Positions 24,525 through 53,467 of a stretch of DNA of 59,938 nt are shown piece after piece. Origin of the DNA: a virus (taxonomy: Duplodnaviria > Caudoviricetes); the IMG/VR virus record IMGVR_UViG_3300044970_000300, positions 1 through 59,938 of that record; one strand, written 5' to 3'. Both the position numbers and the translations under genes were made by a program. Below the pieces are notes generated by a model, which was given only the letters and a program-made list of their open reading frames with translations, was not told the origin of the DNA and searched no databases. Every line of letters starts with the position of its first letter. Position 1 is the stretch's first letter.

Positions 24525-27500
24525 ATGAACGAAGAACTTAAGGCAATCCTAGAGAAGGCGTACGCCAGCGGAAAGTCATTAGACCAGATATCTAAGGCTA
24601 TGAAGGATAACGGCTTCTCTAACGAGGACGTTGCGTTCGCATCAAGCTTTTACGAGAGTAAAAAAAAAAGACCGACCGATGGGGCATCACGTTCCACTTC
24701 GGCTCAGGAGCCTACTTCTTCGGAGTTACCCGTCTCTAAGAGCTCTATGCCTAAGCCTGACCAGTGGGAGAAAGACTTCCAGCAGGCTCGTATGCAGGCA
24801 ATGGAGACTGGGAAACCCGTTGATTTATTTGCGACACCAACAGGTAAACTCTTATCTGAGGGTATAAAGAAAGACAGCGCCCAGCGTGAGCGCGAGGAAA
24901 TCAGCACCGAGCTGGCATCTAAGATTTCTGGTATTAAGACGGCCGAAGACCTTGAGCGTGTTCGTCCTGAGATTGAGAAGACCTACGTAAAGTACAAGGA
25001 GTTTGACCTTGACAATGCAGCACCTGAGTCCATCTTCAATCAGGATGGTTCGTTCAACGTAGCAGCCACATCGTCGCTCGATTCCGACATCAAGTCATCT
25101 ATGGAGCGTTTCACGGCGGAGCAGAAGCGTTTAGCAGAGAATAGCACGTTCGTCTCTAGAGGTCTTGACGCACTGAGTGCTGGTGTTAATGGATTCATCG
25201 ATATGGCCCTTAAGACGGCCACTCCACCTATGACGGCGGCTACGCTCCAGGCGACTGGTACGACGTTCGGTGAACAAGCCAAGAAGGACCTAAAGAACGT
25301 GTCTCTGGCTAACTATGCCGAGAAGTTCAATATGGGTTACACGCCAGAACAGATTGAGAAGGGTGCGCTCAGTATGGCTATGCAGGGAGATTTCGGTCTA
25401 CTAGGTGTAGATATGCTAGACCAAACCATCAATCTAGCGGTCGGTGTTGCGGCTGGTCCCGCTGGCCTCGTGGCTCTAGGTACTACCGCGGCAGGTAGCG
25501 CGTGGACTGAGGTTATGGATGACAACAGATACAATATGGGGGAGAAGATGCTCTACGCCGTAGGTTCTGGTCTCGCCGAGTACGCAACTGAGAAAATTTT
25601 CGCCTCTGACCTTAAGGCCGTTAGAGGGTTGTTTGGTAGTGCAGAGGATGTAGCTAAGATGTCCAGGAAGGATTTCGGAGACCTATTGTTCAGCAAGCTC
25701 CCAGCACTAGCCCGCCAACCGCTTGAGGAAGGTATGGAAGAGGCCATAGTAGCCACCACTCAGGAGACGTTGAAGGCTGTACTTGCAGGTGAGAAGGTTG
25801 ACTATATGAACATCGCCGAGTCTGCGTTTGTGGGTGCGGCTATGGGTGGTTCTGTAGGTGTAGTTACGAGCGGTCCATCCGCCCTGTTGCAGACTCCAAT
25901 CTTCAAGGATAGAATCGAAATCAGAAACAAAATCTCTGAGATTAACAACCTCATCAACGACCCATCAGTGTCTGAGGACGAGAAGGAGCTTCTCAAGACT
26001 AGACTGAACGAATACGTATCTAAGGAGCGCAAGATGCGTGATGACGCAAAGAACTATTACTCTGCATTCTCTGAGGATGACCTACAACAAACCATCAAGC
26101 TGAATCAGACCATCTCTGATGGGATGAAAAAGTACAACACGCTAACTAGCACGGAGGCTAAGGCTCAGGTCGTAACCGACATCAAGGGAGCTATGGCTGA
26201 GAAAGCTAAAATCGAACAGAAGTATGATAGCAAAGCGCAACAACAAGTACCAGGTACTGTCGTCGAAGGGCAAGCCGTTGAGCAAGCCCAACCTGTCGAA
26301 GGAGCAGGCACTCAAGAGACTCAGGCAGGTGGAGTTCTTCAAGCACCTCAAGAAGTAACTAATGCCGCAGAGAGTCTAGGGTTTAAAGTCAAGAGATTCA
26401 AACTAAATCAAAACACAGTTAGTCAAGCGGTTGACGCTATGAACAGTTTCTTGTCTAACGTATCTGATGAAGTTATATCATCTTATGAAACGACTAGAGA
26501 AAATGTTGGTCTTGGAATCCAAAGTATTCAAAATGTTATTGACTCTTTTGCTAAGTCAAACATTGATGTAAACTTCGTTGCCCACACCACTCCTGAAAGT
26601 ATGCAGGAGCAAACTGGACAGTTGGAGCGCGGCGTACACATATCTTACAAGGACGGCAAGCCTAGTGAGATTCACGTATACATTCCATCTCTGCTATCAA
26701 ACACTGCCTATCACGAGGCTATCCACGAGATAATCCCAAGAACGATGGGTGCTGATGGCGTAAATAGCCTTGCTGATAAACTCAAAAGAGCCGTCAAGAG
26801 AGACCCGCAACTTCAGGCGCGTATGGATAAGTTCCTTGGAGGATATGATGTCACCGAGAACACAAATGACGAATTCCTTACTGAATTGGCTTCCTTAGTT
26901 TCTGCTGGGGATATTGACATAAACATCAAGAAAAGTCTCGCCACTAAGTTCGTTGAAGCGGTTAAGAGCGTATTAGGTATGGCTGGAATTAAAACTCAGC
27001 CTACTACAGCTCAACTGTTTAATGGATTAAATCAAATGGCCAAAGAGCTTGGAGCTGGAATTCAGCTTACTGGAGAGCTTGGCCAAATGGACTTCGAAGC
27101 AGCTAGAGCTCAAAAAATCTCTAAGCCTTCCGAAGATAGAGTTATGGCAGCAGCAAATGCTATTGCAAACAACGTAAACAATAAGTATCCAGAGGCTGTA
27201 GAACAAGAAGTAACTAAGGCCGAAGAGATTGTAGATAAGAGAGGCAAAAAGTATGTTAGCTATGAGGTTAAGCAAGTACCTTACCGCCTTGAGTCTGGTG
27301 CAATGGAATTCTTTGGTGAATCAGCAACTGATGTACTAGTAGATAGGATAGTAAAAGACGTAAATGAAAACCTAAGCAACAAAGAGGTTAGCAATGGAAT
27401 AGGATGGTACTCAAAAATGAGAGATTGGTTCCAGAAGAAATTCGGAGCTAACATCGAGTTATTCGGCCAACTGCTTGCTGCAACTTCGGCAAGAACTCCT

Positions 27501-30500
27501 GTAGATATAAACTTCAGGCAGTCAGTAGATGCTATGCGTCAATTCTCATTGGGTAAGTACGACGATATGCTTAATAGATACCACGATTACGTTAGTGGCA
27601 TCGAATCTATGAGCGATGAGGCTGCGCTTAAAGCGTCTGGATTCAAAAAGAAGTCTCACACTGAGGCAGACGTAATTGATGCTCGTAGAAAGCTCATCAA
27701 CAAGTTTACAGAAGTCCCACTTCAGGGTAACGGAAAGAAGTTTAATGCTAACAGTGCTAAAGTTTTACAGGCTCTTTACGGTAACTGGCTTAATCAGACT
27801 CAAGGACCTAAGACTAAGAACTTTGCTGGCAATTTAACTGGACGTTCTACTGAAGCCACGATTGACGTATGGGCAGCTAGATACCTTAGAAGAATAACTT
27901 ACCAAGGCAACGTCGAGCGCTGGAGAATACATCCTTCTCAGGAAGGCTCAGTCGAGCATACTGTCAATACTAAAGGAGAACTAGGGGGAGATTACTTCTT
28001 CGCAGAATCGGTTATGAGAAAGGCCGCCGATAAACTTGGGTGGCAGGCCGATGACCTTCAAGCTTTCCTTTGGTTCTTGGAGAAAGACGTATGGGATAAA
28101 AACGAATGGACTGGAGTTGTAGGTAAAAAGAAATCATCTTTTGAGGAGGAAGCCGCTAAACTTAAAACTGAGCGCTATCAAGCTGGAGTAACTACATTTA
28201 AGGACTTTGATACTTTCGATAAGAAAGAATATGATAAAGCAAAAAAGGAGCTTTTAGACAGCATTAGAAGCATCAGAGGCGTCGTTGTGGCCAGAGTAAA
28301 TGACTCTGAAGGTGAGTTTTACTCCCCTAGTGGAGATGTGTACACCGAGCCATCATTTGACGTTGAGTTCTCTGTAGAGGAAGGAACTGATGTGTCTTCT
28401 GTTGAGGCTAAGGTTGTAGAGATTGGTAAGCGCTATAACCAAGAAGCGGTTTTGTTTAGCAGAATTAGTGACATCAAAACATCCAAAACAGCACCGATTA
28501 TAGAGATTGGCCTGAAGAGACCAGTTAAAGAATCCAAGACGCTGGACGAGGTCAAGAAAGCTCTTGCTGCGATGGACGTTAAAGGTTTCACTATATCCAG
28601 AGACAGCAGGGGTAATGTGCTAGGTATTCGTACTCAGTTTATCAGTGAGTTCGAAGGAAAGCCCATCTCTGAAGGAGAGGTTATATTCGAAAAAGCAGAG
28701 AGCGAAATAAAGTCAAAGTTTGGCAAAAACGAAGATATTTCGTACATTGAGCGTAACTTTGTTGAGACAAACGTATTTTTTACAGCAAATGAAAAAGAAG
28801 CAGAACTACAGAGTGACACTCAAGCCGCCAGCAGTGGGACTGTCCCAGGAGGACTTGAACCTGCTAGCGCAGTGGTTAGAAAACAGGCAGGTCTTGGGAA
28901 GCCAGGAGAAAACGGAAATCGCCTCGATGCCAGAAGAGAAGGAGTAAAAACATCCTTTGTAAACACCTATAGAACTGCTGATTTCCTTCACAGGGCTATA
29001 AGAGACATCGCATACGGTTCAGGTAATGAATGGGGTTTCTTTGCCCCAAGGGGAACAGTAGTAACCGAAGTAAGGGGCCGCAAGGAACGTGGCGACAGGG
29101 ACGAAAGTAGATATTTCGAAGCTGAACTTAAGTTCGTTAACAGAATCAACAAGACCAGTTCTACGTTTAAGTTTATGTTCCGAATTGCTGACCATACGGT
29201 TCCAGCAGATGAGGCTAGAGCGGAGACTTACGTTGATGATGGTATAGCTACATTTAATAACGGATTTGATATAGCGTTAAACATCTGGAGCCCCAACACG
29301 TATAACGCGGCAGTTCTTCATCTTCAGAAGATGTTCAGAGTTAAGTTGCCTAAGATTGACTCTCAACTGCTTATATCTAACAGTAGAATGTTCCGCCAAC
29401 AGCGTGGAATTATGGACATACTGCGTAGACATTTGATGAGTGGAGCTCAGATGATAGATGGCAAATATGTTCCTGCAATTAGCGAAGAAGACTTTGTTGA
29501 GTTAGCAAATAAAATGGGCATCAGTGATATCCTTGCTAAGACTTTGTACGCAGACATCCTTGACCGAGCTAATGAGATGGAGCAGGCTGACTTCAGTATG
29601 GCGAATGTTAGAAGCCAGTATGAAGAGAGAATCAAGGAGCAGCCTTGGTACAAAGTAGTATTCAGCTTGAACAAAATCAGAACTGCGTTATTCGATAGGC
29701 AGTCAAACATCAAGAAGGCTATACTAAATTCTAGAGTATCAGGGGCATACGATTACTTAGTAAACAAATCTGGAGCTAGCGCTCGAGCTAAATACTTTGT
29801 AAACAAGGCTCATAGAGCTATATACTCTGGCCTTAACAAGTCAGACATCAACAACCTTGATGACATTATCTTCCTTCGCCGCGTAATCGAAATCGACAAA
29901 TCTTTTGACGACAGAAGAGCGGCTATTGTTGACCAGCTTGCAGAGGCGAACATTGAGCTAGAATACGCTCAGTACCGCGTAGACAATATGGCCAGCAACA
30001 TTAGTGTAGATAAGAAAAACAAGCTAAGAGAAGAGCTTTCAAAAGCTAGCGCTGAGGTTGATAGACTAACAAAACTGCTTGATGAGACTCAGCGGCCTAT
30101 GCACACTATGGACCGTAAGTCTGGAGTTACCACAAATAAGGAGATAGCCGAATTAGAGCTTCAAAAGATGTCTAAGACGATTAGCAACTTCGACCTTTTA
30201 AACTCTAGAGCTGATGCATACTTTAATGAGTTTAAAAACATTCTAAACGACCTGTTCAAGAATGGCTTAATCACTAAAGAGCTCTACGATAAGATTAAAG
30301 ACTTTGACTACTCTCCAAGGGTCTTCTTAAATCACGCCTTTGACTTCGGTGATAATGACGTGGCTGTACGTGACTATGGACTTACTGGTGACCAAGTTAA
30401 GAGAATCCGCGAAGGCAGTAACGATGATATCATTTTAGATTCTCAGTTTCTGCTATCGGCTTATGCAGCATCAGCTTCATCTAGAATCCTTAAGAACAGA

Positions 30501-32546
30501 GCCAACAAAGCGTTATTTGAGGCTGCCCTAGACCCATCTAACAAAGAGTGGATTAAACCACAGGACCCAGACGGTAGCGCATCGGTTGGTTTTGAGACTG
30601 TATATTTCTACGAGAACGGTGAGCAGGTTAAGTTCCAGCTTCGCACTGACCTGAAGCGTGAGTGGGACGGAGCTAATAGACTGTTTGACTTGGGTCCCGT
30701 AGGCAATAAGTGGATTAGTTACTTGTCTGGTTCTGCACTGCTGAAACTGCTTGCAACCAGAGCGAACCCGTTGTTCGTCGTAAGGAACTTCCCTCGCGAC
30801 TTTGGGCACATCTTGTTTTTCACTGACATTTACGACAATCAGAATATCTACTTCGCATCATACAATCTGATGAGAGACTTCTTTAAGGGTAGACGCTCAT
30901 TCAAGAATGATGACCAGGACTTCCAGGAGTATATGGAAATGGGTGGAGGTATGGACTTCTTATCAACTGATGGTCGCCCTGGTAGCCTTAAGCTAGATAA
31001 GAGTAGTATTGATAAGTTCGTAGATAGGATGTCTAAAATCGGCGAGGTATCCGAGGTGGCATTCCGAGTTGCGGTGTACAAGCGCACTAAGGACGACGCT
31101 GTAGCCGAATACGAGAAGAAGTACGGAAAGAAGCCTACAGGTGAAGACCTAGAACTAATCAAGGCTAAGGCAGTAACTAAGGCTCGCTCAATTATCGACT
31201 TCGCACAAGGAGGTAATCTAACCAAAGGTCTTGAGATTGTTAAGCCTTACATTAACTCAGCATTCCAAGGCTTCAGAGTGTCTGCGTCTTATATCAAGGA
31301 AAACCCGAAGAAGTTCGCTAGCAAGTTCCTTCAGGCGCAGGCTGGTATGCTTGCCTTGGCTATGGCTAACGCACTCATCGGTGGTGACGACTATGAGGAC
31401 ATCCCAGACGAGGTTAAGCTCAAGTACTTCATCATATTTACTGGACTGACGTACCTAGATGAGGATGGCGTAGAGCGTAGAGCTTACATTCGAATCGCTA
31501 AGCCTCAGCAGATGGTTCCGTTCTTTGCGCTGATGGATATTGCGAATGGTTATACGCTTTCTTCAATTCTAGGAAAAGAATACCGTCCGTCTGATGACCT
31601 GATTGAGTACGCAACCAAGGGTGTATTTAATGCCTTGCCTACTGGAGCGTCTCTGTCCGAGATTACATCATCTATACCGTTACTCAGCGCATTAAACACG
31701 TACCAGAGTAACTACGATTCATTCCGCAAACGTGCGATTTCATTGGGATTCGGCGGTAGAGCTCCACTGCCTATGGACGAAGGACTAAATGACCCTAACG
31801 TAGAGCGTTTCTATCAGGTCATCGGTAAGGTATTCGGTGAGACTCAGGAACTAGTTACGGGCGAAAAGAGTGGCCTGTCTCCAGCACGTTTAAAGGTGTC
31901 AGTCGAGAAGATAATCACTAGTCCTAGCTCGTCAATAGTTGTTGGAGCCGCCTATGGACTGCTTGATATCATCACATCGGTTGTGCCGCTCGATAATGAG
32001 CTATCATCACAGGAGCGTAAGGCATCTGCCGTGAAGATTGTAGAGGCTCTATCTAAGAACGGAATTACAGTAAGTAAGGCCATATGGGGTGAGACTAATC
32101 CTGACTGGAAGATTTACAACAAAAAGGAGGAGCTTGAAAGAATAGACCAGGAGTCCGTTAGCAAGCGTATGAGAATCAATGGTGCCGCTAAGGAGCTGGG
32201 ACGTGAATACTTCAACGCCAAGACTGAGGAGGAGAAACAAGCCATTCTTGAAGAAGCTAAGAAGAAATCATCTGAGATAGCAGAGGAGAACAAGATTGAT
32301 GGTATGTACTTCAGGGACACGTTCCTTACCGCAGCTAAGAAGCGTGTGGCTACCCAGAATACGAATGAAATTATCTACTCTGTCGATGATGAATCAAGAG
32401 CCAAAAAGTTCTATAATTTCTACGGAGATATGACCGAAGAGGAACTGCTCGAGGTTAGACGACAGATTTACAACGAGTCTGGATACAAACTGAGCGCTAA
32501 GTTCAAGTACGAGTACGACAGATTACGCAAAGAAAAAATGAAGTAA
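24525..32546 (+). CDS. giant polyvalent virion/ejection protein (zincin HExxH, HhH-like and LPD38-like regions)
   Basis: 2673 aa; YHEAIHE motif; C-terminal PYINSAFQG..IPDEVK..YFII..YIRIAKP resembles LPD38; promoter TATATTTG at 24495-24502. Confidence 0.7.
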   Translation: MNEELKAILEKAYASGKSLDQISKAMKDNGFSNEDVAFASSFYESKKKRPTDGASRSTSAQEPTSSELPVSKSSMPKPDQWEKDFQQARMQAMETGKPVDLFATPTGKLLSEGIKKDSAQREREEISTELASKISGIKTAEDLERVRPEIEKTYVKYKEFDLDNAAPESIFNQDGSFNVAATSSLDSDIKSSMERFTAEQKRLAENSTFVSRGLDALSAGVNGFIDMALKTATPPMTAATLQATGTTFGEQAKKDLKNVSLANYAEKFNMGYTPEQIEKGALSMAMQGDFGLLGVDMLDQTINLAVGVAAGPAGLVALGTTAAGSAWTEVMDDNRYNMGEKMLYAVGSGLAEYATEKIFASDLKAVRGLFGSAEDVAKMSRKDFGDLLFSKLPALARQPLEEGMEEAIVATTQETLKAVLAGEKVDYMNIAESAFVGAAMGGSVGVVTSGPSALLQTPIFKDRIEIRNKISEINNLINDPSVSEDEKELLKTRLNEYVSKERKMRDDAKNYYSAFSEDDLQQTIKLNQTISDGMKKYNTLTSTEAKAQVVTDIKGAMAEKAKIEQKYDSKAQQQVPGTVVEGQAVEQAQPVEGAGTQETQAGGVLQAPQEVTNAAESLGFKVKRFKLNQNTVSQAVDAMNSFLSNVSDEVISSYETTRENVGLGIQSIQNVIDSFAKSNIDVNFVAHTTPESMQEQTGQLERGVHISYKDGKPSEIHVYIPSLLSNTAYHEAIHEIIPRTMGADGVNSLADKLKRAVKRDPQLQARMDKFLGGYDVTENTNDEFLTELASLVSAGDIDINIKKSLATKFVEAVKSVLGMAGIKTQPTTAQLFNGLNQMAKELGAGIQLTGELGQMDFEAARAQKISKPSEDRVMAAANAIANNVNNKYPEAVEQEVTKAEEIVDKRGKKYVSYEVKQVPYRLESGAMEFFGESATDVLVDRIVKDVNENLSNKEVSNGIGWYSKMRDWFQKKFGANIELFGQLLAATSARTPVDINFRQSVDAMRQFSLGKYDDMLNRYHDYVSGIESMSDEAALKASGFKKKSHTEADVIDARRKLINKFTEVPLQGNGKKFNANSAKVLQALYGNWLNQTQGPKTKNFAGNLTGRSTEATIDVWAARYLRRITYQGNVERWRIHPSQEGSVEHTVNTKGELGGDYFFAESVMRKAADKLGWQADDLQAFLWFLEKDVWDKNEWTGVVGKKKSSFEEEAAKLKTERYQAGVTTFKDFDTFDKKEYDKAKKELLDSIRSIRGVVVARVNDSEGEFYSPSGDVYTEPSFDVEFSVEEGTDVSSVEAKVVEIGKRYNQEAVLFSRISDIKTSKTAPIIEIGLKRPVKESKTLDEVKKALAAMDVKGFTISRDSRGNVLGIRTQFISEFEGKPISEGEVIFEKAESEIKSKFGKNEDISYIERNFVETNVFFTANEKEAELQSDTQAASSGTVPGGLEPASAVVRKQAGLGKPGENGNRLDARREGVKTSFVNTYRTADFLHRAIRDIAYGSGNEWGFFAPRGTVVTEVRGRKERGDRDESRYFEAELKFVNRINKTSSTFKFMFRIADHTVPADEARAETYVDDGIATFNNGFDIALNIWSPNTYNAAVLHLQKMFRVKLPKIDSQLLISNSRMFRQQRGIMDILRRHLMSGAQMIDGKYVPAISEEDFVELANKMGISDILAKTLYADILDRANEMEQADFSMANVRSQYEERIKEQPWYKVVFSLNKIRTALFDRQSNIKKAILNSRVSGAYDYLVNKSGASARAKYFVNKAHRAIYSGLNKSDINNLDDIIFLRRVIEIDKSFDDRRAAIVDQLAEANIELEYAQYRVDNMASNISVDKKNKLREELSKASAEVDRLTKLLDETQRPMHTMDRKSGVTTNKEIAELELQKMSKTISNFDLLNSRADAYFNEFKNILNDLFKNGLITKELYDKIKDFDYSPRVFLNHAFDFGDNDVAVRDYGLTGDQVKRIREGSNDDIILDSQFLLSAYAASASSRILKNRANKALFEAALDPSNKEWIKPQDPDGSASVGFETVYFYENGEQVKFQLRTDLKREWDGANRLFDLGPVGNKWISYLSGSALLKLLATRANPLFVVRNFPRDFGHILFFTDIYDNQNIYFASYNLMRDFFKGRRSFKNDDQDFQEYMEMGGGMDFLSTDGRPGSLKLDKSSIDKFVDRMSKIGEVSEVAFRVAVYKRTKDDAVAEYEKKYGKKPTGEDLELIKAKAVTKARSIIDFAQGGNLTKGLEIVKPYINSAFQGFRVSASYIKENPKKFASKFLQAQAGMLALAMANALIGGDDYEDIPDEVKLKYFIIFTGLTYLDEDGVERRAYIRIAKPQQMVPFFALMDIANGYTLSSILGKEYRPSDDLIEYATKGVFNALPTGASLSEITSSIPLLSALNTYQSNYDSFRKRAISLGFGGRAPLPMDEGLNDPNVERFYQVIGKVFGETQELVTGEKSGLSPARLKVSVEKIITSPSSSIVVGAAYGLLDIITSVVPLDNELSSQERKASAVKIVEALSKNGITVSKAIWGETNPDWKIYNKKEELERIDQESVSKRMRINGAAKELGREYFNAKTEEEKQAILEEAKKKSSEIAEENKIDGMYFRDTFLTAAKKRVATQNTNEIIYSVDDESRAKKFYNFYGDMTEEELLEVRRQIYNESGYKLSAKFKYEYDRLRKEKMK
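26224..26358 (+). CDS. nested +1-frame small basic protein (44 aa)
   Basis: MIAKRNNKYQVLSSKGKPLSKPNLSKEQALKRLRQVEFFKHLKK*; phage-like AAG codons; the main frame here is a low-complexity linker. Confidence 0.6.
   Translation: MIAKRNNKYQVLSSKGKPLSKPNLSKEQALKRLRQVEFFKHLKK
28789..28947 (+). CDS. nested +1-frame small protein (52 aa)
   Basis: MKKKQNYRVTLKPPAVGLSQEDLNLLAQWLENRQ...; TAACTTTG at 28754-28761 upstream; the main frame is a linker. Confidence 0.45.
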   Translation: MKKKQNYRVTLKPPAVGLSQEDLNLLAQWLENRQVLGSQEKTEIASMPEEKE

Positions 32547-39861: not shown

Positions 39862-40114
39862 CTTTTAGCGCGATGTTTAATAGAATTAAATAGCCGATAA
39901 GGTCATCAATGGTATCCACTGTGTCTACATTGAGCCCTCTGTTCTTAATACGCATCAGCTTGTCGTCGATTCGGGAGCAGAGGTTATCTACCGCTGAGCC
40001 CTTGGCGAATACGTTAGCTGGCTTGAGTGCGCTGTCACCGTATGAAGCGTTCTTCCTTAGTAGGAGTTCCTTCACGCGGTCTGCTTCCTGTGTTATCTTA
40101 TCTCTAGAATTCAT
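39716..40114 (-). CDS. DUF1599/Nmad1-like protein
   Basis: KNASYGDS...RIDDKL.RI...DT..DLIGY motif. Confidence 0.75.
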   Translation of the reverse strand: MNSRDKITQEADRVKELLLRKNASYGDSALKPANVFAKGSAVDNLCSRIDDKLMRIKNRGLNVDTVDTIDDLIGYLILLNIALKDAAGHFTEESHKVQEHSEARGTTTYSSWTSNPTDNIAQGGYTWPGIED

Positions 40115-40529
40115 CGTAGTATTTGTTGTTATCGTATTCTTCACCTACCATATATACCCAGGCTTCTGTGTCGCTGTTGAACACTGACTCCTCAGGCGTT
40201 ACGGTAATCTTCTCGCGCTTGTAGTAGATTGGGTGTCCCTCCAATCGGTCGAGTGCGGCTAGTGTGGTGTCATCAACGTAGTACAACTCAAGTAGGACGT
40301 GCTTGCCGTTCTCTGAGGAGCCCTTGATTACGTAGGGGAGTGAAATCACACACATACGCATCGGCTCCTTAGTGCGAGCGGTTCCCATATAGATTGAGTC
40401 GCGCAGGTAGATGTTGTTACCGCGCCCCATCTTCAGTGTGCCGTACACAGCGACGAGGTGGCGCTTCTCTTGCTTGTCGACGACTTGCTGGCTATCGCCT
40501 GGGTCGTCCCAGTATAGAAACTCATTCAT
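40104..40529 (-). CDS. gamma-glutamylcyclotransferase (AIG2-like)
   Basis: VAVYGTLK.G and LDRLEG...Y.R motifs. Confidence 0.85.
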   Translation of the reverse strand: MNEFLYWDDPGDSQQVVDKQEKRHLVAVYGTLKMGRGNNIYLRDSIYMGTARTKEPMRMCVISLPYVIKGSSENGKHVLLELYYVDDTTLAALDRLEGHPIYYKREKITVTPEESVFNSDTEAWVYMVGEEYDNNKYYDEF

Positions 40530-40737
40530 AGGATAATTCAATTTTGATGTGTTCGACGAATTGGTTTAGTCTGTCGATGAACTTGGGTGTGACGATGGCG
40601 TTCCTGTTTATCACATTCGTAACCAACGTACGGCTCAGTCTGAGGTTCTTGGCGATTGCCGTCTGGCTCACGCCGATGTTCTCGGTGAGCACCCTAAGCA
40701 TCTCAAGGGCTTCGTCTTCGTTATTTATTTGAGGCAT
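40522..40737 (-). CDS. XRE-like HTH protein
   Basis: SQTAIAKNLRLSRTLV helix-turn-helix pattern. Confidence 0.6.
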   Translation of the reverse strand: MPQINNEDEALEMLRVLTENIGVSQTAIAKNLRLSRTLVTNVINRNAIVTPKFIDRLNQFVEHIKIELSYE

Positions 40738-47871: not shown

Positions 47872-48654
47872 CTACCATATTCCGTCCTCGTCCAACGTGT
47901 CGCGTAGGTATTCGCTACGCAGTTCGTGCTTGCTTGCATTCCATTTGTACGACGGCTCGTCATCGAAGTCATCGAGGAAGTCCGTGTACTTAGGTGCCTT
48001 AGGGATAGCAACCTTGCGCTCGCTGTCCCAAATGGTAGGCTGAGTCACGGCGTTGGCGTATGAGCCTGTCTTGTACACCTTCTTGCTACCTGCCCATACG
48101 TAGTCGTTTACACGCTTGTACGAGTCGTTGCTGAACCAATTTCCGTCGACATCGTAGTGACCTAGTTGGTCGTTGAGGATACGTACCTCACCGCGCCAAT
48201 CAAGGAACGCTACTTTGTTGTGGGAACCGATGATTGTCAGAGCCATAGCACGGATGCCCGCGTGGTCGAGGAAGTCGACGTTGTCAGGGTAGAACTTGCC
48301 TAGCATCTGAGCGAACTCACGAGTGTCGCTGACCTTGTGGTCACCTAGACCCGAGATGACTCCGTTGTGAATCAGTGATACACGACCCTCGGTCACGCTG
48401 TGCGGATGGAGCATATCCTTGCCCTTGCCGTGCGTTGCGATGCGGAAGTGAATCAAGATGGGAGTGTCGGTGAGTTCACGTATGAACTCGTACTCCTCAA
48501 AGAAGTCATCGAAGTTGTAGCCCTCGTGGTAGGTCATCACCTTGCCGTTGTCGACGTAGGCGATGCCTGCTCCGTGGTTGTTATTATCCCAAGCATTCTT
48601 GAGTTGTTTCTTGGTGAGAAAAGAGTTCGGTTGATTTACGATTGCGATACACAT
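47872..48654 (-). CDS. class II (Ntn) glutamine amidotransferase
   Basis: N-terminal MC, N.HGAG, HFRIATHG, HP, HNGVI and SDT motifs. Confidence 0.88.
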   Translation of the reverse strand: MCIAIVNQPNSFLTKKQLKNAWDNNNHGAGIAYVDNGKVMTYHEGYNFDDFFEEYEFIRELTDTPILIHFRIATHGKGKDMLHPHSVTEGRVSLIHNGVISGLGDHKVSDTREFAQMLGKFYPDNVDFLDHAGIRAMALTIIGSHNKVAFLDWRGEVRILNDQLGHYDVDGNWFSNDSYKRVNDYVWAGSKKVYKTGSYANAVTQPTIWDSERKVAIPKAPKYTDFLDDFDDEPSYKWNASKHELRSEYLRDTLDEDGIW

Positions 48655-49629: not shown

Positions 49630-49644
49630 CTTAAAGTTTTTTAT

Positions 49645-49694
49645 GGTTAAGACGCCTCACGGCGTTTCGTCTACTAAAGCCTCGTCAGTTAACC
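49645..49694 (-). ncRNA. type I hammerhead ribozyme 1
   Basis: GGUUAA CUGACGA GGCU-UUAGU-AGAC GAAA CGCC-GUGA-GGCG UC^UUAACC; one mismatch in stem II. Confidence 0.85.
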
Positions 49695-49889
49695 TTGCTC
49701 GTTTATGTACTGCGTCAGCACCTCGTCAGCCGCATTCAAATTTTCCTCGAGTTCGAGGGACTGCCGCTCGATTATGTCGAACGCAATCAGTTTGTAGCGC
49801 TCGTCTTCGTCGGTGGCTTCTATGAACCTAGACACACTACTCAGGTAGTTCTCATAGGCTCTCATCATTTGCTTTAGTTCGTGTTTCAT
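49689..49889 (-). CDS. hypothetical helical protein (66 aa)
   Basis: Start MKHELKQ; the stop codon lies in hammerhead stem I. Confidence 0.55.
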   Translation of the reverse strand: MKHELKQMMRAYENYLSSVSRFIEATDEDERYKLIAFDIIERQSLELEENLNAADEVLTQYINEQG

Positions 49890-49971: not shown

Positions 49972-51480
49972 TTACGCTTGGCCGATAGCCTTGCGGATAG
50001 TGTGTGAACCGAACTTCGACTCTACCGCACGGCTAGTGAAGTTCTGAACGCTAGCGTAGGCACGCTTCATTCGCTCCAAGGTGCGGTCGTAGTTGTCGCT
50101 GTTGGCTAGGAACTCGGTAGGTGACTGACCTTCCAAGCATCCACCGAATACGTAAACCAAGGCTTGCTTGCGTGCAAGTTTTTCGGCGCTGTATTGTGAG
50201 CGGAGTAACTTGTTCAGTTTTTTGTCGCTGAACATTGCATCTGCAACCTCGGTGAACTTAGTGTACGTTCCGTTGTCGATTTGCTTTACAATCCACTGCA
50301 CTAGTTTAGTGCGGAACTTGATTGACTCGAGCGTTGATACCGCGCTGAAGATGCGAAGTTCAACCGCGTCCTTCGGTAGTGTGCCGAAGTTGCAGTTGTA
50401 GATTGCCCTGCGGCTACCGCGCTTCATCTCGTCCTTGTTTTGGATGCCGCCGTAATCGGTGCTGAGGCGGCCTTCGTACAGGCTGAAAAGTAGCGGGATA
50501 AACGGAGCCAACTTGTCAATCAGGTCAACTGCGGTTACACCTCGACGGCTGATTGTGATGTGCCCACCACAGCGACGTGAGTAACCCGAATTCATAACCC
50601 AATCGAGTCGGTCGAACTCGTCGAACATCGTCTTCGTGTCGAGTAGGTTAAATACAGGAGACACAGCCTCGAAACCTGTGCGGCTGTCGAGCGATGAGTC
50701 ACGCTCAACAATCCATCCGTTGCCTAGGTTTGAACTAGCCCAAGCACAGCGGTTGCGTGCCTCGCGGTCTTCTTTCTCAACCTCGAAGCCTACGAACCAA
50801 TCAACACTTGCGTCGTTTAGGACGCTTTTGCTGCGTGACGTAAGGTGGTAACCTCCCAACGATGGTGCGTCTCCGTAACGACGGCCGACTTCGGCGTTCT
50901 CGAAGATTGCCGTGCGTCCCTCCCACTCACCAACAACCAAGTCGTTGTCGCTACGACGGATTTGGCTTAGGTACTCGTGGCGGTATTGGTCGTGCAGTCG
51001 AATCTCCTGAGAGGCGAAGTTTGCACCGAACAGCGGGTACTCGGATGTGCGGTAATCGGTGAACGCACACAGGTCGGTGGTGTATAATTGGCCGTCGATA
51101 ACAACGCAAACGAAGTTGGTTGGGTATTCGGTCATAGGCACAGCCTCGAACGTAGCGTCGCTGAGTTCAAGGTGCGGGAAGCCCTCGAGTCGGAGCGGGT
51201 TACGCTGTCCGCTAGTGTGGCGGTAGTAGATGTTTGCCTCAGTGCGGAGCGCACCGATGGTGATAAACATTGACTCGTGACAGCGCATATTGACATCAAT
51301 TCCGTACGCTGCTGCGTCGAGCGCCATAGGGAACAAGGTTTGCTTGGTGGTTCCGTCGCTAGCGATGTACCTGTAGCGGAAATAATCGTTGTTGACTCCG
51401 AAGTAGAAGTCGAACTGAGCGTTGTGGTATGCTCGGTGAAGTTCAATCTTGCGGCCTGATACGATGTTGGTGACTTTCAT
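49972..51480 (-). CDS. putative COOH-NH2 amidoligase (Amidoligase_2-like C-terminal domain)
   Basis: GFEVE, DSSL...GFE.VSP, CGGHI and VELR motifs. Confidence 0.75.
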   Translation of the reverse strand: MKVTNIVSGRKIELHRAYHNAQFDFYFGVNNDYFRYRYIASDGTTKQTLFPMALDAAAYGIDVNMRCHESMFITIGALRTEANIYYRHTSGQRNPLRLEGFPHLELSDATFEAVPMTEYPTNFVCVVIDGQLYTTDLCAFTDYRTSEYPLFGANFASQEIRLHDQYRHEYLSQIRRSDNDLVVGEWEGRTAIFENAEVGRRYGDAPSLGGYHLTSRSKSVLNDASVDWFVGFEVEKEDREARNRCAWASSNLGNGWIVERDSSLDSRTGFEAVSPVFNLLDTKTMFDEFDRLDWVMNSGYSRRCGGHITISRRGVTAVDLIDKLAPFIPLLFSLYEGRLSTDYGGIQNKDEMKRGSRRAIYNCNFGTLPKDAVELRIFSAVSTLESIKFRTKLVQWIVKQIDNGTYTKFTEVADAMFSDKKLNKLLRSQYSAEKLARKQALVYVFGGCLEGQSPTEFLANSDNYDRTLERMKRAYASVQNFTSRAVESKFGSHTIRKAIGQA

Positions 51481-51506
51481 AACTGAAAAGAATTAAGTTT
51501 TGTAAT

Positions 51507-51560
51507 GGTTAAGACGAGGACGAATCCTCGTTTCGGCTACTAAAGCCTCGTCAGTTAACC
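51507..51560 (-). ncRNA. type I hammerhead ribozyme 2
   Basis: GGUUAA CUGACGA GGCU-UUAGU-AGCC GAAA CGAGGA-UUCG-UCCUCG UC^UUAACC; all three stems perfect. Confidence 0.92.
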
Positions 51561-51565
51561 TTTAT

Positions 51566-51664
51566 TTATTCGAGGTTGCTTTCATACTTGTAGATGCGAT
51601 AGTAGACATACGCTACAACTGCGGCTCCTATAAGCATCTGAATGAGTTCGAAAAAACTTTCCAT
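51566..51664 (-). CDS. small single-TM peptide (32 aa)
   Basis: MESFFELIQMLIGAAVVAYVYYRIYKYESNLE; A-rich leader. Confidence 0.55.
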   Translation of the reverse strand: MESFFELIQMLIGAAVVAYVYYRIYKYESNLE

Positions 51665-51694
51665 AATTGTTGTGGTTTTAAGTGGTTGAATTTT

Positions 51695-52348
51695 GACTGC
51701 CGTAGGGACTCGAACCCTATGCCTTGCGGCACTCCAAGCGGCAGTTATTGCCTTGAACAGGCGAACCTTTTTGGCGGCGTTGTTGCTCGCAACATCTACC
51801 GCATACGCTGTTAGTTCCTCCACGACTGCTATCCTTTGGCGGCGCTTTTTACGCACCGCATACGCTGTCTTTCGCTGTCGTTTGTTCTCGGCTTGTTTTG
51901 ACTTGATTTGCTTGGGTGTTCTTGCGGTGTTCATTGGCCTCCCCCCAACCGCCTGAAACCTTTGCGCCACGGCGCTTCGTTTTCGTTTGTCTGAGGCTTG
52001 ATTTCTTACGGCCGCCATACTTGGCCTTGCTCGTCTCGTCTACCTGCCCTCGTTACTTTCGGTCGGATTGTGCTAGCCTACTTACGCTACTCACTTGGAT
52101 TACATCACCTACTCAATCAGACCTGACCTGCTACTCCGCTCCCTAACGCCCGACAGCCTGTAGGCCGTGGCCTACTGACTGAATCGTACAGGGTTCACAA
52201 GGTGGGTTTCCGATTTTTGGGAGGCGCTTTCGCTAACATCTCTCCGCCTATCGTCACTATGGGACTTTATTTAGAAACACCTCGTATTCGACCTAGCGGC
52301 CGCCGCGTTTTGTGTTTCAGAATTTTAAAGAGCGTTTGTCTTTCGACT
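51695..52348 (-). ncRNA. large structured early leader/ncRNA
   Basis: No credible ORF; many helices and GNRA loops; starts after a complete promoter. Confidence 0.5.
51696..51745 (-). ncRNA. mini tRNA-like structure
   Basis: 7-bp acceptor-like stem, canonical T arm TAGGG-TTCGAGT-CCCTA, GCAA hairpin in place of the anticodon arm. Confidence 0.65.
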
Positions 52349-52351
52349 CCA

Positions 52352-52382
52352 CAAACATACGACGACTTTGCACATCTGCAAA
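52352..52382 (-). promoter_or_regulatory. early promoter TTTGCA-N17-TATGTTTG
   Basis: Bacteroidota -33/-7 consensus at the head of the minus-strand early region. Confidence 0.75.
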
Positions 52383-52437
52383 CTCCGACCACAAAAAAAG
52401 TTAGGACTCCCGCTCGCCTATAAGGAATATATAGGGC

Positions 52438-52690
52438 TAACTGCTTGATAATCAGCACACAAAAAAAAGTTTACTAGGGGGTGAAATTTAGAATCGTTCT
52501 AAATAAAAGTGACTGAAAATCAACAACTTAGTAATCCATTGAAAATCAGATAGTTACTAACTGCCTAAAACTCAGCAAGTTACAACGTACTGAAACACAG
52601 CGAGTTAACGTAACTACCTGATAATCAGCGACATTTAAGAAATCATATGCACAGGATTACGACCCGAACCGCTTGACAACCAACGACTTA
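52438..52690. repeat. array of IHF-box-like degenerate repeats
   Basis: WATCARnnnnTTA-like units, four of them spaced 26, 26 and 25 bp apart. Confidence 0.6.
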
Positions 52691-53330
52691 ACTAGCCAAC
52701 GTATGTACAGAATACGGCGATAAGCATACTTTTTTCGTTTAATAAAACACCCGTACAGAATCCGTGCGTTTATACCACACAAACAAGCACACGACCTGTC
52801 TACTATAGTATACAAAAAAGAATATACAATTATGCGTGCCTAGCGTACTCAGTTCGGTGAAGTATTAACGTGGTAAATAGTGGGAGAAAATGGTAGGGGG
52901 ATTGATGCAGGTCTACGGCCAAGTCCCCCCACGAAAAAAAACATACGTTCGGTGACACGTTTTCCCTACTTTTTCTACAGCGAACAGGCCGAAACGATTA
53001 AGGTAGACGGGCTAATAGTGACACAAAGTAGGCACACCACTCACCCACCCACCCCAACAGCAAAACGCTAAAATGTTTGAACGTAACGTGTTGATAACGA
53101 GGGGGTTGGGTTCGGGATTCCGTTTCGGGGTCGGGGGCGCAGCGTCGTTCTTGTATAATTCTCCCCAGGGTATACATAACTCGTCCCCAAATCAAGACGA
53201 TGTTGACCTGATATGAAACAAAAACACCGTGAAGTCTACCTAGACGGTTAATACAAGCGGTTAAATAGTAGGGAAATCGGGGATACGCAACCGTTTGAGC
53301 CTAAGCACACGCATCCTGTATTCAAGTCTT

Positions 53331-53467
53331 TGTAGTAGCTGTCGCTCTATTCTTTGTCAGTTGCGGACGGGCGTTTGGGACTGTCCTCCACTGCCAATCG
53401 TTCCGTAGTTCCGTCTCTAGGACGATTACGTCCGCTATAGCACGTCGTCTTGTGCCTTGCACTACAG
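53331..53467 (-). ncRNA. candidate small structured RNA with its own promoter
   Basis: TAACTTTG at 53471-53478 followed by nested helices. Confidence 0.45.

Follow-up and report, generated by a model that had tools for sequence, protein, structure and literature searches.

Between a promoter and the first long gene of its leftward operon, this phage carries several hundred nucleotides that raise a simple question: what is made from this stretch, where does the product begin and end, and what might it do? A sequence-only reading had proposed that the leftward transcript begins with a large structured non-coding RNA not described before, and this proposal stands, given that the region matches no Rfam family, that its helices covary and that it is present in RNA libraries. 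The window, i.e., the whole stretch of DNA analyzed here, is a complete virus record of 59,938 bp; the promoter, RNA with its domains, minihelix, hammerhead, small ORF, ligase gene and repeat array described below all lie on its (-) strand.

The locus and the extent of the RNA

The promoter (52352..52382), read from the sequence, consists of a -33 box TTTG (52382-52379), a 19-nt spacer and a -7 box TATGTTTG (52359-52352), which we take to follow the Bacteroidota-type consensus. It is present just upstream of the RNA, as had been claimed, and its position is common to all clades, including clade E with the version CTTG ... TATACTTG. A scan for sigma-70 promoters gave no match, as expected with a Bacteroidota host. 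The RNA stands first on the leftward transcript of replication and DNA-metabolism genes, and we infer its "early" timing solely from the host-type promoter and the DNA-metabolism genes downstream. Further upstream, an iteron- or operator-like array (52438..52690) comprises 5-7 repeats at a spacing of ~26 nt with the core TGATTATCA..AGTTA. Searched at up to two mismatches, the window contains this motif 8 times where 0.57 would be expected, and 52438-52627 accounts for 6 of these matches. A palindrome, TGAT-N-ATCA, is part of the repeats, and the array, which includes the direct-repeat families D1 and D2, is conserved in all clades including clade E.

Downstream of the RNA, a 32-codon ORF for a hydrophobic peptide (51566..51664) is found only in the window's spacer and is absent from three related loci (L003, L004 and L005). 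The spacer is divided from the next cistron by a type I hammerhead ribozyme (51508..51582) with a predicted cut after C51513, where the RAGATH-1-hammerhead model of Rfam scores 22.3 bits against a gathering score of 56.3; a second copy lies at 49664-49688. This cut site is real as a sequence feature, though its cleavage is a prediction, and it lies outside the large RNA. The first long gene of the operon (49972..51480) encodes a 502-aa protein that a fold search assigns to the glutamine-synthetase-fold carboxylate-amine ligases: the top Foldseek matches of its structure model (pLDDT 68) are glutamine synthetases and PafA with a probability of ~1, at a TM of only ~0.25. The protein has no Pfam match (to E 10), no PHROG match and no PDB sequence match, and the Amidoligase family of Pfam, considered as a candidate, was dropped on that basis; only the fold search points to the glutamine-synthetase fold. 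A homologue of this ligase lies downstream of the RNA in every clade, at a distance that varies through inserted small ORFs and hammerheads.

Evidence for the RNA itself comes from four river metatranscriptome runs under four study codes, all river samples of 2018 and possibly one campaign, in which contigs of 479-608 nt span 51752-52338 without giving the strand. The region is transcribed, in agreement with the sequence-only reading. The observed ends lie at 52334-52338 and 51748-51752 and are not precise, as they come from contigs and not from raw reads. Loose letters, presumably Illumina adapter, adjoin 52338 in one run (X15) and 51752 in two others (X16 and X20), and one short contig extends to 51748. 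A low-depth contig of run X15 (52319-52469) spans the proposed start, so that processing could have produced the 5' end, or the sample may contain DNA. The stretches 50900-51747 and 52601-53100 are without contig cover in all four runs, an absence that we do not count as evidence.

What the libraries contain is a discrete piece, which extends from a few bases past the promoter to a few bases short of a tRNA-like minihelix, and it is almost certainly a real, conserved and expressed structured non-coding RNA. Conservation, covariation and these contigs together delimit its body to ~590-600 nt (51746..52345). The hammerhead with the cut site at 51513, numbered 2 in the earlier reading, had been expected to set the 3' end there, but the contigs end at 51748-51752, ~240 nt upstream. 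Because both the contigs and the adjoining letters stop there, we place the 3' end just before the tRNA mimic and not at the hammerhead.

Conservation, distribution and coding potential

The RNA is present in 18 IMG/VR contigs. Exact-pattern scans each returned the same 13-14 contigs, as did an alignment search with the ligase, and the only route to a wider reach was a terminase search combined with a model of the RNA built on 52085-52226 (R1), which matched in 5 of 81 sources, 3 of them new. Related terminases are found in at least 598 contigs. No match was found among 185,579 prokaryote species genomes, and a blastn search of 50,697 phage records with 1.3 kb was equally negative. Model R1 has no match in MW202828, the nearest GenBank relative, whose ligase homologue is preceded by small ORFs without a large gap.

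Where the RNA occurs, it is more strongly conserved than the neighboring gene, with nucleotide identities of 97.1 vs 79.6, 86.0 vs 83.8 and 72.7 vs 61.6. By blastn, the upstream block has identities of 96%, 83% and 75% to its relatives, compared to 75%, 82% and 56% for the next protein. One locus (L074) has the same operon-head position and a ligase homologue, with an RNA of unrecognizably different sequence for which we found no Rfam match, no relative among the fetched loci and no second contig.

Apart from the sub-threshold tRNA-like element, the RNA matched no family of Rfam 15, GOLLD and ROOL included, in searches of the whole window at the gathering score and of 2.5 kb and 681 bases to E 10. 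We also found no description of it in the literature, though fragments of it may figure among the IMG/VR motifs of 29-151 nt that Fremin et al. catalogued (PMC10690425).

The sole long ORF of the region (51566-52018) would encode a basic protein of 150 aa. Among nine distinct homologues it is full length in one (the window), truncated to 68 aa in another (a 97%-identical relative) and absent from the remaining seven, with one-base indels falling within the ORF region, and it matched neither Pfam nor PHROG. The RNA carries no conserved reading frame, in line with the earlier judgment that no credible ORF comes before 51664.

Covarying structure and its domains

The structure of the RNA is backed by covariation and not by folding energy. 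In an alignment of 15 distinct sequences, which is of low diversity (only five clades, so that many "cells" are inherited together) and from which the RNAalifold structure was itself derived, 59 of 169 pairs changed on both sides compared to 11-19 in controls with slid partners, and 90.7% of cells are paired compared to 33-38%. With 13 sequences, 34 of the 169 pairs changed on both sides (controls: 2-8). The minimum free energy (MFE) structure of the window sequence alone, when mapped onto the 15-sequence alignment, has 47 of 166 pairs changed on both sides, as opposed to 11-22. The covariation predicted for this RNA is hence present in both alignments and in the window-only mapping. The folding energy of the window sequence is no better than that of shuffles (z -0.07), 45 of 100 of which fold at least as well.

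Four domains can be distinguished. The variable 5' domain (52266..52345) is shortened in the window's clade, and alignments show helices that differ between clades; the long-range helices that the window-only MFE structure places here are unsupported, with 26-60% of cells paired. The conserved core (52046..52265) contains the best-supported helices, i.e., 52248-52232/52077-52061, 52215-52200/52129-52115 and 52193-52185/52148-52141 as well as the hairpin 52181-52154. Pairs changed on both sides amount to 10/14 in helix 9, 8/13 in helix 12, 3/8 in helix 13 and 4/9 in helix 14; within helix 12, ACCCACCUU pairs with AGGUCAGGU, which are otherwise invariant and change from AC/GU to CU/AG in clade E. 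The central domain (51895..52043) comprises helices 19, 21, 22 and 24, the hairpin GCGC-CGUG-GCGC (51975-51964) and the invariant GUAUGG..GCCGUAAGAAA (52020-52003), which resembles what we take to be the GAAA-tetraloop receptor motif. The 3' domain (51750..51892) holds helices 26-32 and is closed by the helix of GCCGAGAACA (51892-51883) and UGUUCAAGGC (51759-51750), in which the mature 3' end lies buried. Clade E aligns poorly in this domain, and its register there is unreliable, as are the 5'-domain helices. In a scan for further stacked covariation, alignment columns 416-422 emerged as possible alternative partners of columns 536-542, a pairing that mirrors a local hairpin of almost identical sequence.

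The helices that had been picked out by eye fared differently. GUAGGC/GCCUAC (helix 14), proposed as GUAGGCC/GGCCUAC, covaries, and GCGC/GCGC (helix 24), proposed as GCGCC/GGCGC, is kept. GCCU/AGGC (helix 22) shows variation in both strands, but pairing extends to only 77% of its cells, and GUC-GAAA-GAC, present in 13 of 15 sequences, is missing in clade E. The proposed GAAACAC/GUGUUUC helix occurs in only 3 of the 15 sequences.

Blocks of 18-22 invariant nucleotides sit within this covarying scaffold. Two hairpin loops, CACG within CCACGG (52165..52170) and CGUG within CCGUGG (51967..51972), are candidate loop-loop partners of each other and invariant in 14 of 15 sequences. Only L016 changes both, A>G and U>C together, a single event that 39 of 500 shuffles matched. 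The complementary invariant loops and the tetraloop-receptor-like motif suggest tertiary or intermolecular docking. A reading of GGAAAGUCC and GAAACCCACCUU as an RNase P-like element with P4-type pairing was rejected because covariation pairs GUCCC with GGGC and, as above, the two strands within helix 12, not these blocks with each other; bacterial RNase P RNA likewise had no match to the Rfam covariance models.

The minihelix and a proposed function

The minihelix (51696..51745), recognized from sub-threshold Rfam matches and T-stem covariation, has a 7-bp acceptor stem, a short GCAA hairpin, a 5-bp T stem and a UUCGAGU loop, without a D arm or an anticodon arm and without an encoded CCA after it. 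The region's best Rfam match is mascRNA-menRNA (RF01684) with 30.9 bits, below the gathering score of 42.5 (E 0.0003-0.0011). Across eight sequences, 4 of the 5 T-stem pairs changed on both sides, and variants of the acceptor stem still pair (ACUGCCG/CGGCAGU, UCUGCG/CGCAGA and GCCCUA/UAGGGC, differing in clade E and L074). It is not a tRNA: the two arms are missing, the Rfam tRNA model scores 15.2 bits against a gathering score of 29 and ARAGORN called no tRNA here in the window or in five relatives. The only true tRNA of the window, Arg-TCT, lies 18 kb away. A tmRNA was rejected as well, as neither ARAGORN nor Rfam found a match, the mimic is one contiguous piece where the tRNA-like domain of tmRNA is formed by the two ends, and no small ORF that could serve as a tag frame is conserved.

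A stack of acceptor and T stem is a minimal substrate of RNase P, which also processes the C4 RNA of phages P1 and P7 and tmRNA (PMC3858429). The 3' end of our RNA is probably formed by an RNase P-type cut on the 5' side of the minihelix, predicted at 51746/51745, although the contigs end 2-6 nt short of this site, at 51752 (two runs, with adjoining letters) and at 51748.

Our main reading, to which we assign a probability of about 0.5 as a whole chain, is a new class of large (~600 nt) phage RNA that is cut free by an RNase P-type event and acts in trans. In the leftward DNA-metabolism operon, it would be the segment that host RNA polymerase transcribes first, and host RNase P would cut on the 5' side of the tRNA mimic by the same logic as in MALAT1/mascRNA, creating the 3' end of the RNA and uncoupling it from the downstream mRNA, which the hammerheads would cleave further. 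With both of its ends in helices, the freed RNA would therefore accumulate and could work during host takeover as a compact RNA or RNA-protein particle. For this action in trans, proposed by likeness to GOLLD and ROOL, we see slightly less than an even chance, and particle formation may be considered by the same analogy. An extended version is unlikely: the RNA would be a third self-assembling phage RNA class beside ROOL and GOLLD and the first product of infection, excised by RNase P via the mimic, with CACG/CGUG loops that link copies into rings or cages capturing a host component, while phages of the L074 type would keep the promoter-RNA-mimic-ligase module with a diverged RNA. In that case, large RNAs derived from leaders would be widespread in podophages of Bacteroidota and for the most part uncatalogued.

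The most serious competitor, itself improbable, is a leader acting in cis, i.e., a long 5' UTR that controls, stabilizes or antiterminates the operon, with the mimic as a stabilizer of the mRNA 5' end after cleavage. The RNA does always head the same operon with a ligase homologue next in every clade and in L074, but the library contigs end with presumed adapter letters before the mimic and none enters the mRNA. A separate RNA species that ends before the downstream mRNA speaks against a purely cis-acting antitermination leader, and so does the variable distance to the gene; moreover, no leader known to us comes close to it in size or in invariant single-stranded blocks. Somewhat less probable is a transcript of an origin region, a structured pre-primer or origin-activating RNA like ColE1 RNA II that obtains a 3'-OH by endonuclease cleavage. 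The genome's only cluster of the 26-nt-spaced iteron-like motif lies directly upstream, and the locus is the divergence point of two transcription directions at which AT skew changes sign. However, TGAT-N-ATCA repeats may equally be operators. A ColE1-type primer would form a persistent RNA-DNA hybrid at an origin and have its processed 3' end extended by DNA polymerase, and the one feature here that points that way is the nearby array. Priming does not need conserved tertiary-type motifs, and what builds up in the RNA libraries is a discrete RNA whose two ends lie in helices.

We give a still smaller share to a large ribozyme whose conserved core catalyzes, e.g., the generation of its own end or a reaction with a tRNA-like substrate. 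Its invariant blocks within a covarying scaffold, the self-cleaving hammerheads on the same transcript and the 2-6 nt between the observed 3' end and the predicted RNase P site would fit, but no ribozyme family of Rfam 15 matched, the context points to no chemistry and contig ends are imprecise. That the RNA is a divergent GOLLD or ROOL is very improbable, since neither covariance model matched to E 10 with lax filters on 681 bases, even though genome kind, ROOL-like size and an adjoining tRNA-type element agree. Least credible of all is a protein-coding or merely conserved DNA control region. The region is conserved as DNA and its 150-codon frame is open in the window, but compensating changes keep long-range pairs, the region is present in RNA libraries and the homologue comparison refutes the coding reading.

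The RNA of the main reading would form a new class among the large phage RNAs of unexplained role, of which there are few. Large structured RNAs without known function are likewise scarce, and to our knowledge all solved ones (the ribosome, RNase P, group I and II introns and, more recently, the cages of ROOL and GOLLD) brought new biology to light. For a metagenomic find, the RNA is rarely complete: the promoter is there, both ends are known approximately from RNA libraries, the core fold is well supported and there is an obvious candidate for the processing signal. It would also be, as far as we know, the first long non-coding RNA whose end a phage sets by means of a tRNA mimic, a logic known in human MALAT1. 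The conserved operon-head module may be a general pattern in a common freshwater phage group, judging by the contigs with related terminases.

Among known RNAs, the pRNA of phi29 multimerizes through complementary loops. Like our RNA, with its two complementary loops that covary once, it is a podovirus RNA from an early promoter, but it has ~170 nt, belongs to the packaging motor of phages that lack a classical large terminase (a 708-aa large terminase is encoded here) and matches our RNA in neither sequence nor structure. For GOLLD and ROOL, both of them phage RNAs with tRNAs nearby, PMC12286853 gives the function as unknown. With GOLLD, our RNA shares phage origin, several hundred nucleotides, many helices, the absence of a coding frame and an adjoining tRNA-type element, and GOLLD itself sometimes carries tRNAs in a linker (PMC12286853). 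It differs in lacking a match to the Rfam model, in size (~600 nt vs >800), in a truncated tRNA mimic instead of true tRNAs and in its operon-head site behind a host-type promoter. ROOL has a similar size, phage or prophage origin and a tRNA neighborhood, and the same article reports high abundance and no known partner protein (PMC12286853); our RNA has other helices and conserved blocks and no match to its model. MALAT1/mascRNA (and MEN-beta) has a like arrangement, a long non-coding RNA followed directly by a tRNA-like element without a normal anticodon arm (PMC8457004), and here, too, the RNA contigs stop just before the mimic. That system is eukaryotic and nuclear, so the likeness is one of analogy, not homology, and we saw no triple-helix protection of the end in our RNA. 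The C4 antisense RNA of P1/P7, the tmRNA precursor and the t-elements of plant mitochondria likewise use tRNA-like modules as processing signals, located within the functional RNA or between mRNAs (PMC3858429), whereas in this phage the module would determine where a structured RNA of 600 nt ends on its 3' side.

A conserved non-coding RNA family

The minus strand at ~52345-51746 encodes an RNA of ~600 nt that is conserved, non-coding and covarying, and that is bounded in RNA libraries near its promoter and near a tRNA-like minihelix (the tRNA mimic, 51745-51696). It lies at the extreme head of the leftward gene block of a virus record that is complete or nearly so (59,938 bp; 98%). The large terminase of this virus shares 39-47% identity with its counterparts in Flavobacterium "elemo" podophages, Cellulophaga phages and a spring-water Caudoviricetes genome, and related terminases are encoded by at least 598 IMG/VR contigs. 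Rightward genes from ~53.4 kb encode the endolysin, terminase and structural proteins, and leftward genes extend from ~52.35 kb down to 33.8 kb. Between endolysin gene and a repeat array upstream of the RNA, a further 0.75 kb (52691-53451) has no credible ORFs and shares conserved blocks such as GTCGTAGACCTGCATCAATCCCCC with relatives. Elsewhere, a 2673-aa protein (24525-32546, plus strand) with weak matches only (DUF7178, LPD38) could be a polymerase packaged in the virion, like that of crAss-like phages.

Upstream of the RNA, the minus strand reads TTTG (52382-52379), 19 nt and TATGTTTG (52359-52352), which we take to be the -33/-7 promoter arrangement of Bacteroidota and which has the same position in every relative. 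The next credible genes past this promoter start at 51664 (a 32-codon ORF) and 51480 (the gene of a 502-aa protein, 49972-51480). The sole long ORF inside the RNA stretch (51566-52018, minus strand, 150 aa) has no match in Pfam and PHROG searches. Among nine distinct homologues it is intact in the window alone, shortened to 68 aa in a relative with 97% identity and missing in the other seven, with one-base indels both in DNA alignments and in RNA-library contigs. This lack of conservation refutes a protein-coding reading and agrees with the original impression that no credible ORF directly follows the promoter. The 32-codon ORF (51566-51664, minus strand) between tRNA mimic and hammerhead encodes a hydrophobic peptide and is found only in the window's version of this spacer, while clades D and E of the RNA homologues have other small ORFs there.

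The first relatives were six loci from a search with the neighboring 502-aa protein. By blastn, relatives match the block 52627-51664 at 96%, 83% and 75% identity versus only 75%, 82% and 56% for the 502-aa protein, and global alignment gave nucleotide identities for RNA versus gene of 97.1 versus 79.6, 86.0 versus 83.8 and 72.7 versus 61.6; conservation ends directly after CGGCAGUCAAA. Exact patterns from invariant blocks matched 14, 14 and 13 IMG/VR contigs as well as six metagenome contigs, which pooled into 13 distinct sequences of four clades. A covariance model of the 142-nt core (R1, 52085-52226) matched five of 81 sources (80 terminase-related loci and one GenBank locus), i.e., two known contigs and three members of a new clade E that is far more diverged (124 bits versus 161). 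A looser two-block pattern raised the total to 18 IMG/VR contigs and found none among 185,579 prokaryote species (one genome each). Neither blastn of the RNA region against 50,697 phage records nor R1 on the nearest GenBank genome gave a match. The RNA also belongs to no Rfam 15 family and our literature search returned no description of it, which supports the suggestion of the sequence-only reading that this large RNA is undescribed. The IMG/VR motif catalogue covers motifs of 29-151 nt only and may include fragments of this RNA (PMC10690425).

Ends of the RNA and the tRNA mimic

Among 24 listed public runs, 14 lake DNA runs contain at least half of the sampled words and six river metatranscriptome runs contain ~0.4 of them. 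We compared contigs from four of these six runs (X15, X16, X17 and X20; four study codes, all 2018 river samples that may be one campaign) with 50900-53100. The main contigs, 479-608 nt long and sharing 95-99% identity with the window, span 51882-52338, 51752-52336, 51856-52334 and 51752-52307. The region is thus present in RNA libraries, though neither strand nor exact ends can be read from such contigs. Loose letters that we take to be Illumina adapter abut 52338 (X15) and 51752 (X16, X20), which marks these positions as ends of library inserts; in X17, a short contig extends to 51748. These ends place the 5' end a few bases past the start site expected from the -7 element (~52345) and the 3' end 2-6 nt before the tRNA mimic. 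One low-depth contig (52319-52469) runs across the proposed start, and missing contig cover on the flanks was not counted as evidence.

A 3' end set by a type I hammerhead ribozyme (51582-51508, minus strand; core CUGACGAG ... CGAAAC ... GUC) with a predicted cut after 51513 had previously been suggested. This suggestion is not supported, as the RNA contigs stop near the tRNA mimic instead (51752-51748). A near-identical type I hammerhead lies at 49640-49700 (minus strand), both being placed between cistrons of the leftward operon, and related loci contain more copies.

At gathering score, Rfam 15 finds nothing in the window but a true tRNA-Arg 18 kb from the RNA. With lax thresholds, the region shows a single notable match, to mascRNA-menRNA at 51745-51696 (30.9 bits, gathering 42.5; E 0.0003-0.0011), accompanied by a weak tRNA match (15.2 bits). 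This minus-strand minihelix has a 7-bp acceptor stem (ACUGCCG/CGGCAGU), a 5-bp T stem and a UUCGAGU loop; a short GCAA-capped hairpin replaces the anticodon arm, the D arm is absent, and ARAGORN does not call it as a tRNA. Across the family, clade E and the related locus L074, four of five T-stem pairs show changes on both sides (UAGGG/CCCUA, AGUGG/CCACU, AGCAG/CUGCU), and the acceptor stems differ in sequence with pairing retained. Stacked acceptor/T-stem helices are described as a minimal substrate of RNase P, which also processes tRNA-like modules in phage P1/P7 C4 RNA and tmRNA (PMC3858429). Another related phage has a 72-nt tRNA-like element (L092:3991-4064, minus strand) with a 7-bp acceptor stem and GGGUUCGAUUCCC T arm, located after a coding sequence ~6 kb upstream of the terminase.

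Structure by covariation

The folding energy of the 600-nt window sequence equals that of shuffles (-170.8 versus -170.35 ± 6.49 kcal/mol; z -0.07), and the helices originally spotted by eye are thus not beyond chance. Comparison nevertheless supports the structured RNA that they had been taken to indicate, i.e., the molecule appears structured by covariation and not by energy. In the RNAalifold structure of 13 sequences, 95.2% of cells are paired and 34 of 169 pairs have both-side changes, compared to 2-8 when partners are slid by 1-3 columns. With clade E (15 sequences), 90.7% are paired (slid 33-38%) and the count rises to 59/169 (slid 11-19), though cell counts overstate independent events because there are five clades only. 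Since RNAalifold picks pairs using covariation, we added a test of the window-only MFE structure, which recovered the same core helices (15 sequences; 78% paired; 47/166, slid 11-22).

Best supported is the core (52265-52046), with both-side changes in 10/14 pairs of helix 52248-52232/52077-52061, 8/13 of 52215-52200/52129-52115, 3/8 of 52193-52185/52148-52141 and 4/9 of hairpin 52181-52154 (all minus strand). Within the RNA, GAAACCCACCUUGUGAAC pairs with GAGCGGAGUAGCAGGUCAGGUC; neither varies among the first 13 sequences, and clade E keeps the pairing through AC/GU to CU/AG. The 5' domain varies among clades and its long-range helices from single-sequence folding are unsupported (26-60% paired), while the clade E alignment is poor in the 3' domain. 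A possible alternative long-range pairing (GCGCCGU/GCGGUGC, 51975-51969 with 51859-51853; alignment columns 416-422/536-542) is kept in clade E through both-side changes and mirrors a local hairpin of near-identical sequence, so that either a switch or a coincidence could explain it.

Invariant A-rich single strands, several GAAA loops and a GUAUGG..CCGUAAG stretch that we take to resemble the 11-nt tetraloop receptor suggest tertiary or intermolecular docking, as do two invariant complementary loops (CACG 52169-52166, CGUG 51971-51968). In one relative alone (L016), these loops change jointly to CGCG and CGCG, a single event that 39 of 500 shuffles also reach.

Neighborhood, possible roles and known relatives in kind

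In every clade, a homologue of the 502-aa protein is encoded downstream of the RNA, in some cases after a small ORF and hammerhead. This protein has no Pfam and no PDB sequence match, and a Foldseek search with its AlphaFold model (pLDDT 68) points to glutamine synthetases and the Pup ligase PafA (probability ~1, TM only ~0.25). Its gene shares one minus-strand operon with genes of a weak glutamine-amidotransferase-like protein (47872-48654) and a gamma-glutamyl cyclotransferase-like protein (40104-40541), which together look like a gamma-glutamyl-type modification module; by fold search only, the 502-aa protein would be its glutamine-synthetase-fold ligase. The leftward genes further encode a glucosaminidase-domain protein, a PD-(D/E)XK nuclease, a primase-helicase and both ribonucleotide reductase subunits. 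At L074 (terminase 70% identical), a different ORF-poor stretch of ~800 nt (L074:3666-4520, minus strand) occupies the same place, starts with GUCGAAAGGGACAAACG like the window RNA, contains many UAUGG/CCUUAAG-type motifs and has a tRNA-like minihelix of its own at the end; the gene after it encodes a 512-aa protein homologous to the 502-aa one. The stretch has no Rfam match and no relative or second copy in the loci and contigs searched. Given this layout, the combination of promoter, large RNA, tRNA mimic and ligase gene may extend beyond the family recognized by sequence.

We infer that host RNA polymerase initiates at ~52345 and that RNase P cleaves on the 5' side of the mimic to form the 3' end of the RNA, which would be buried in helix 51892-51883/51759-51750. 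This cut would part the RNA from the mRNA, which the hammerheads would cleave further, and the freed RNA could then act in trans. A cis-acting leader would match the fixed position of the RNA but is at odds with a separate RNA species. The locus could alternatively yield an origin or primer RNA, given its strand switch and an array of five to seven repeats upstream (52438-52690; spacing ~26 nt, palindromic core TGATTATCA), though nothing beyond array and strand switch speaks for this. The array motif has eight matches in the window versus 0.57 expected, six of them at 52438-52627, a cluster found nowhere else in the genome and kept in all clades, even clade E; these repeats could be operators or replication iterons. 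The invariant core would also fit a ribozyme, a possible alternative to the processed, trans-acting RNA that we propose.

Covariance-model searches exclude membership in GOLLD or ROOL. These are the nearest known kinds to this RNA and are described as abundant, cage-forming phage RNAs of unknown function encoded near tRNAs (PMC12286853).
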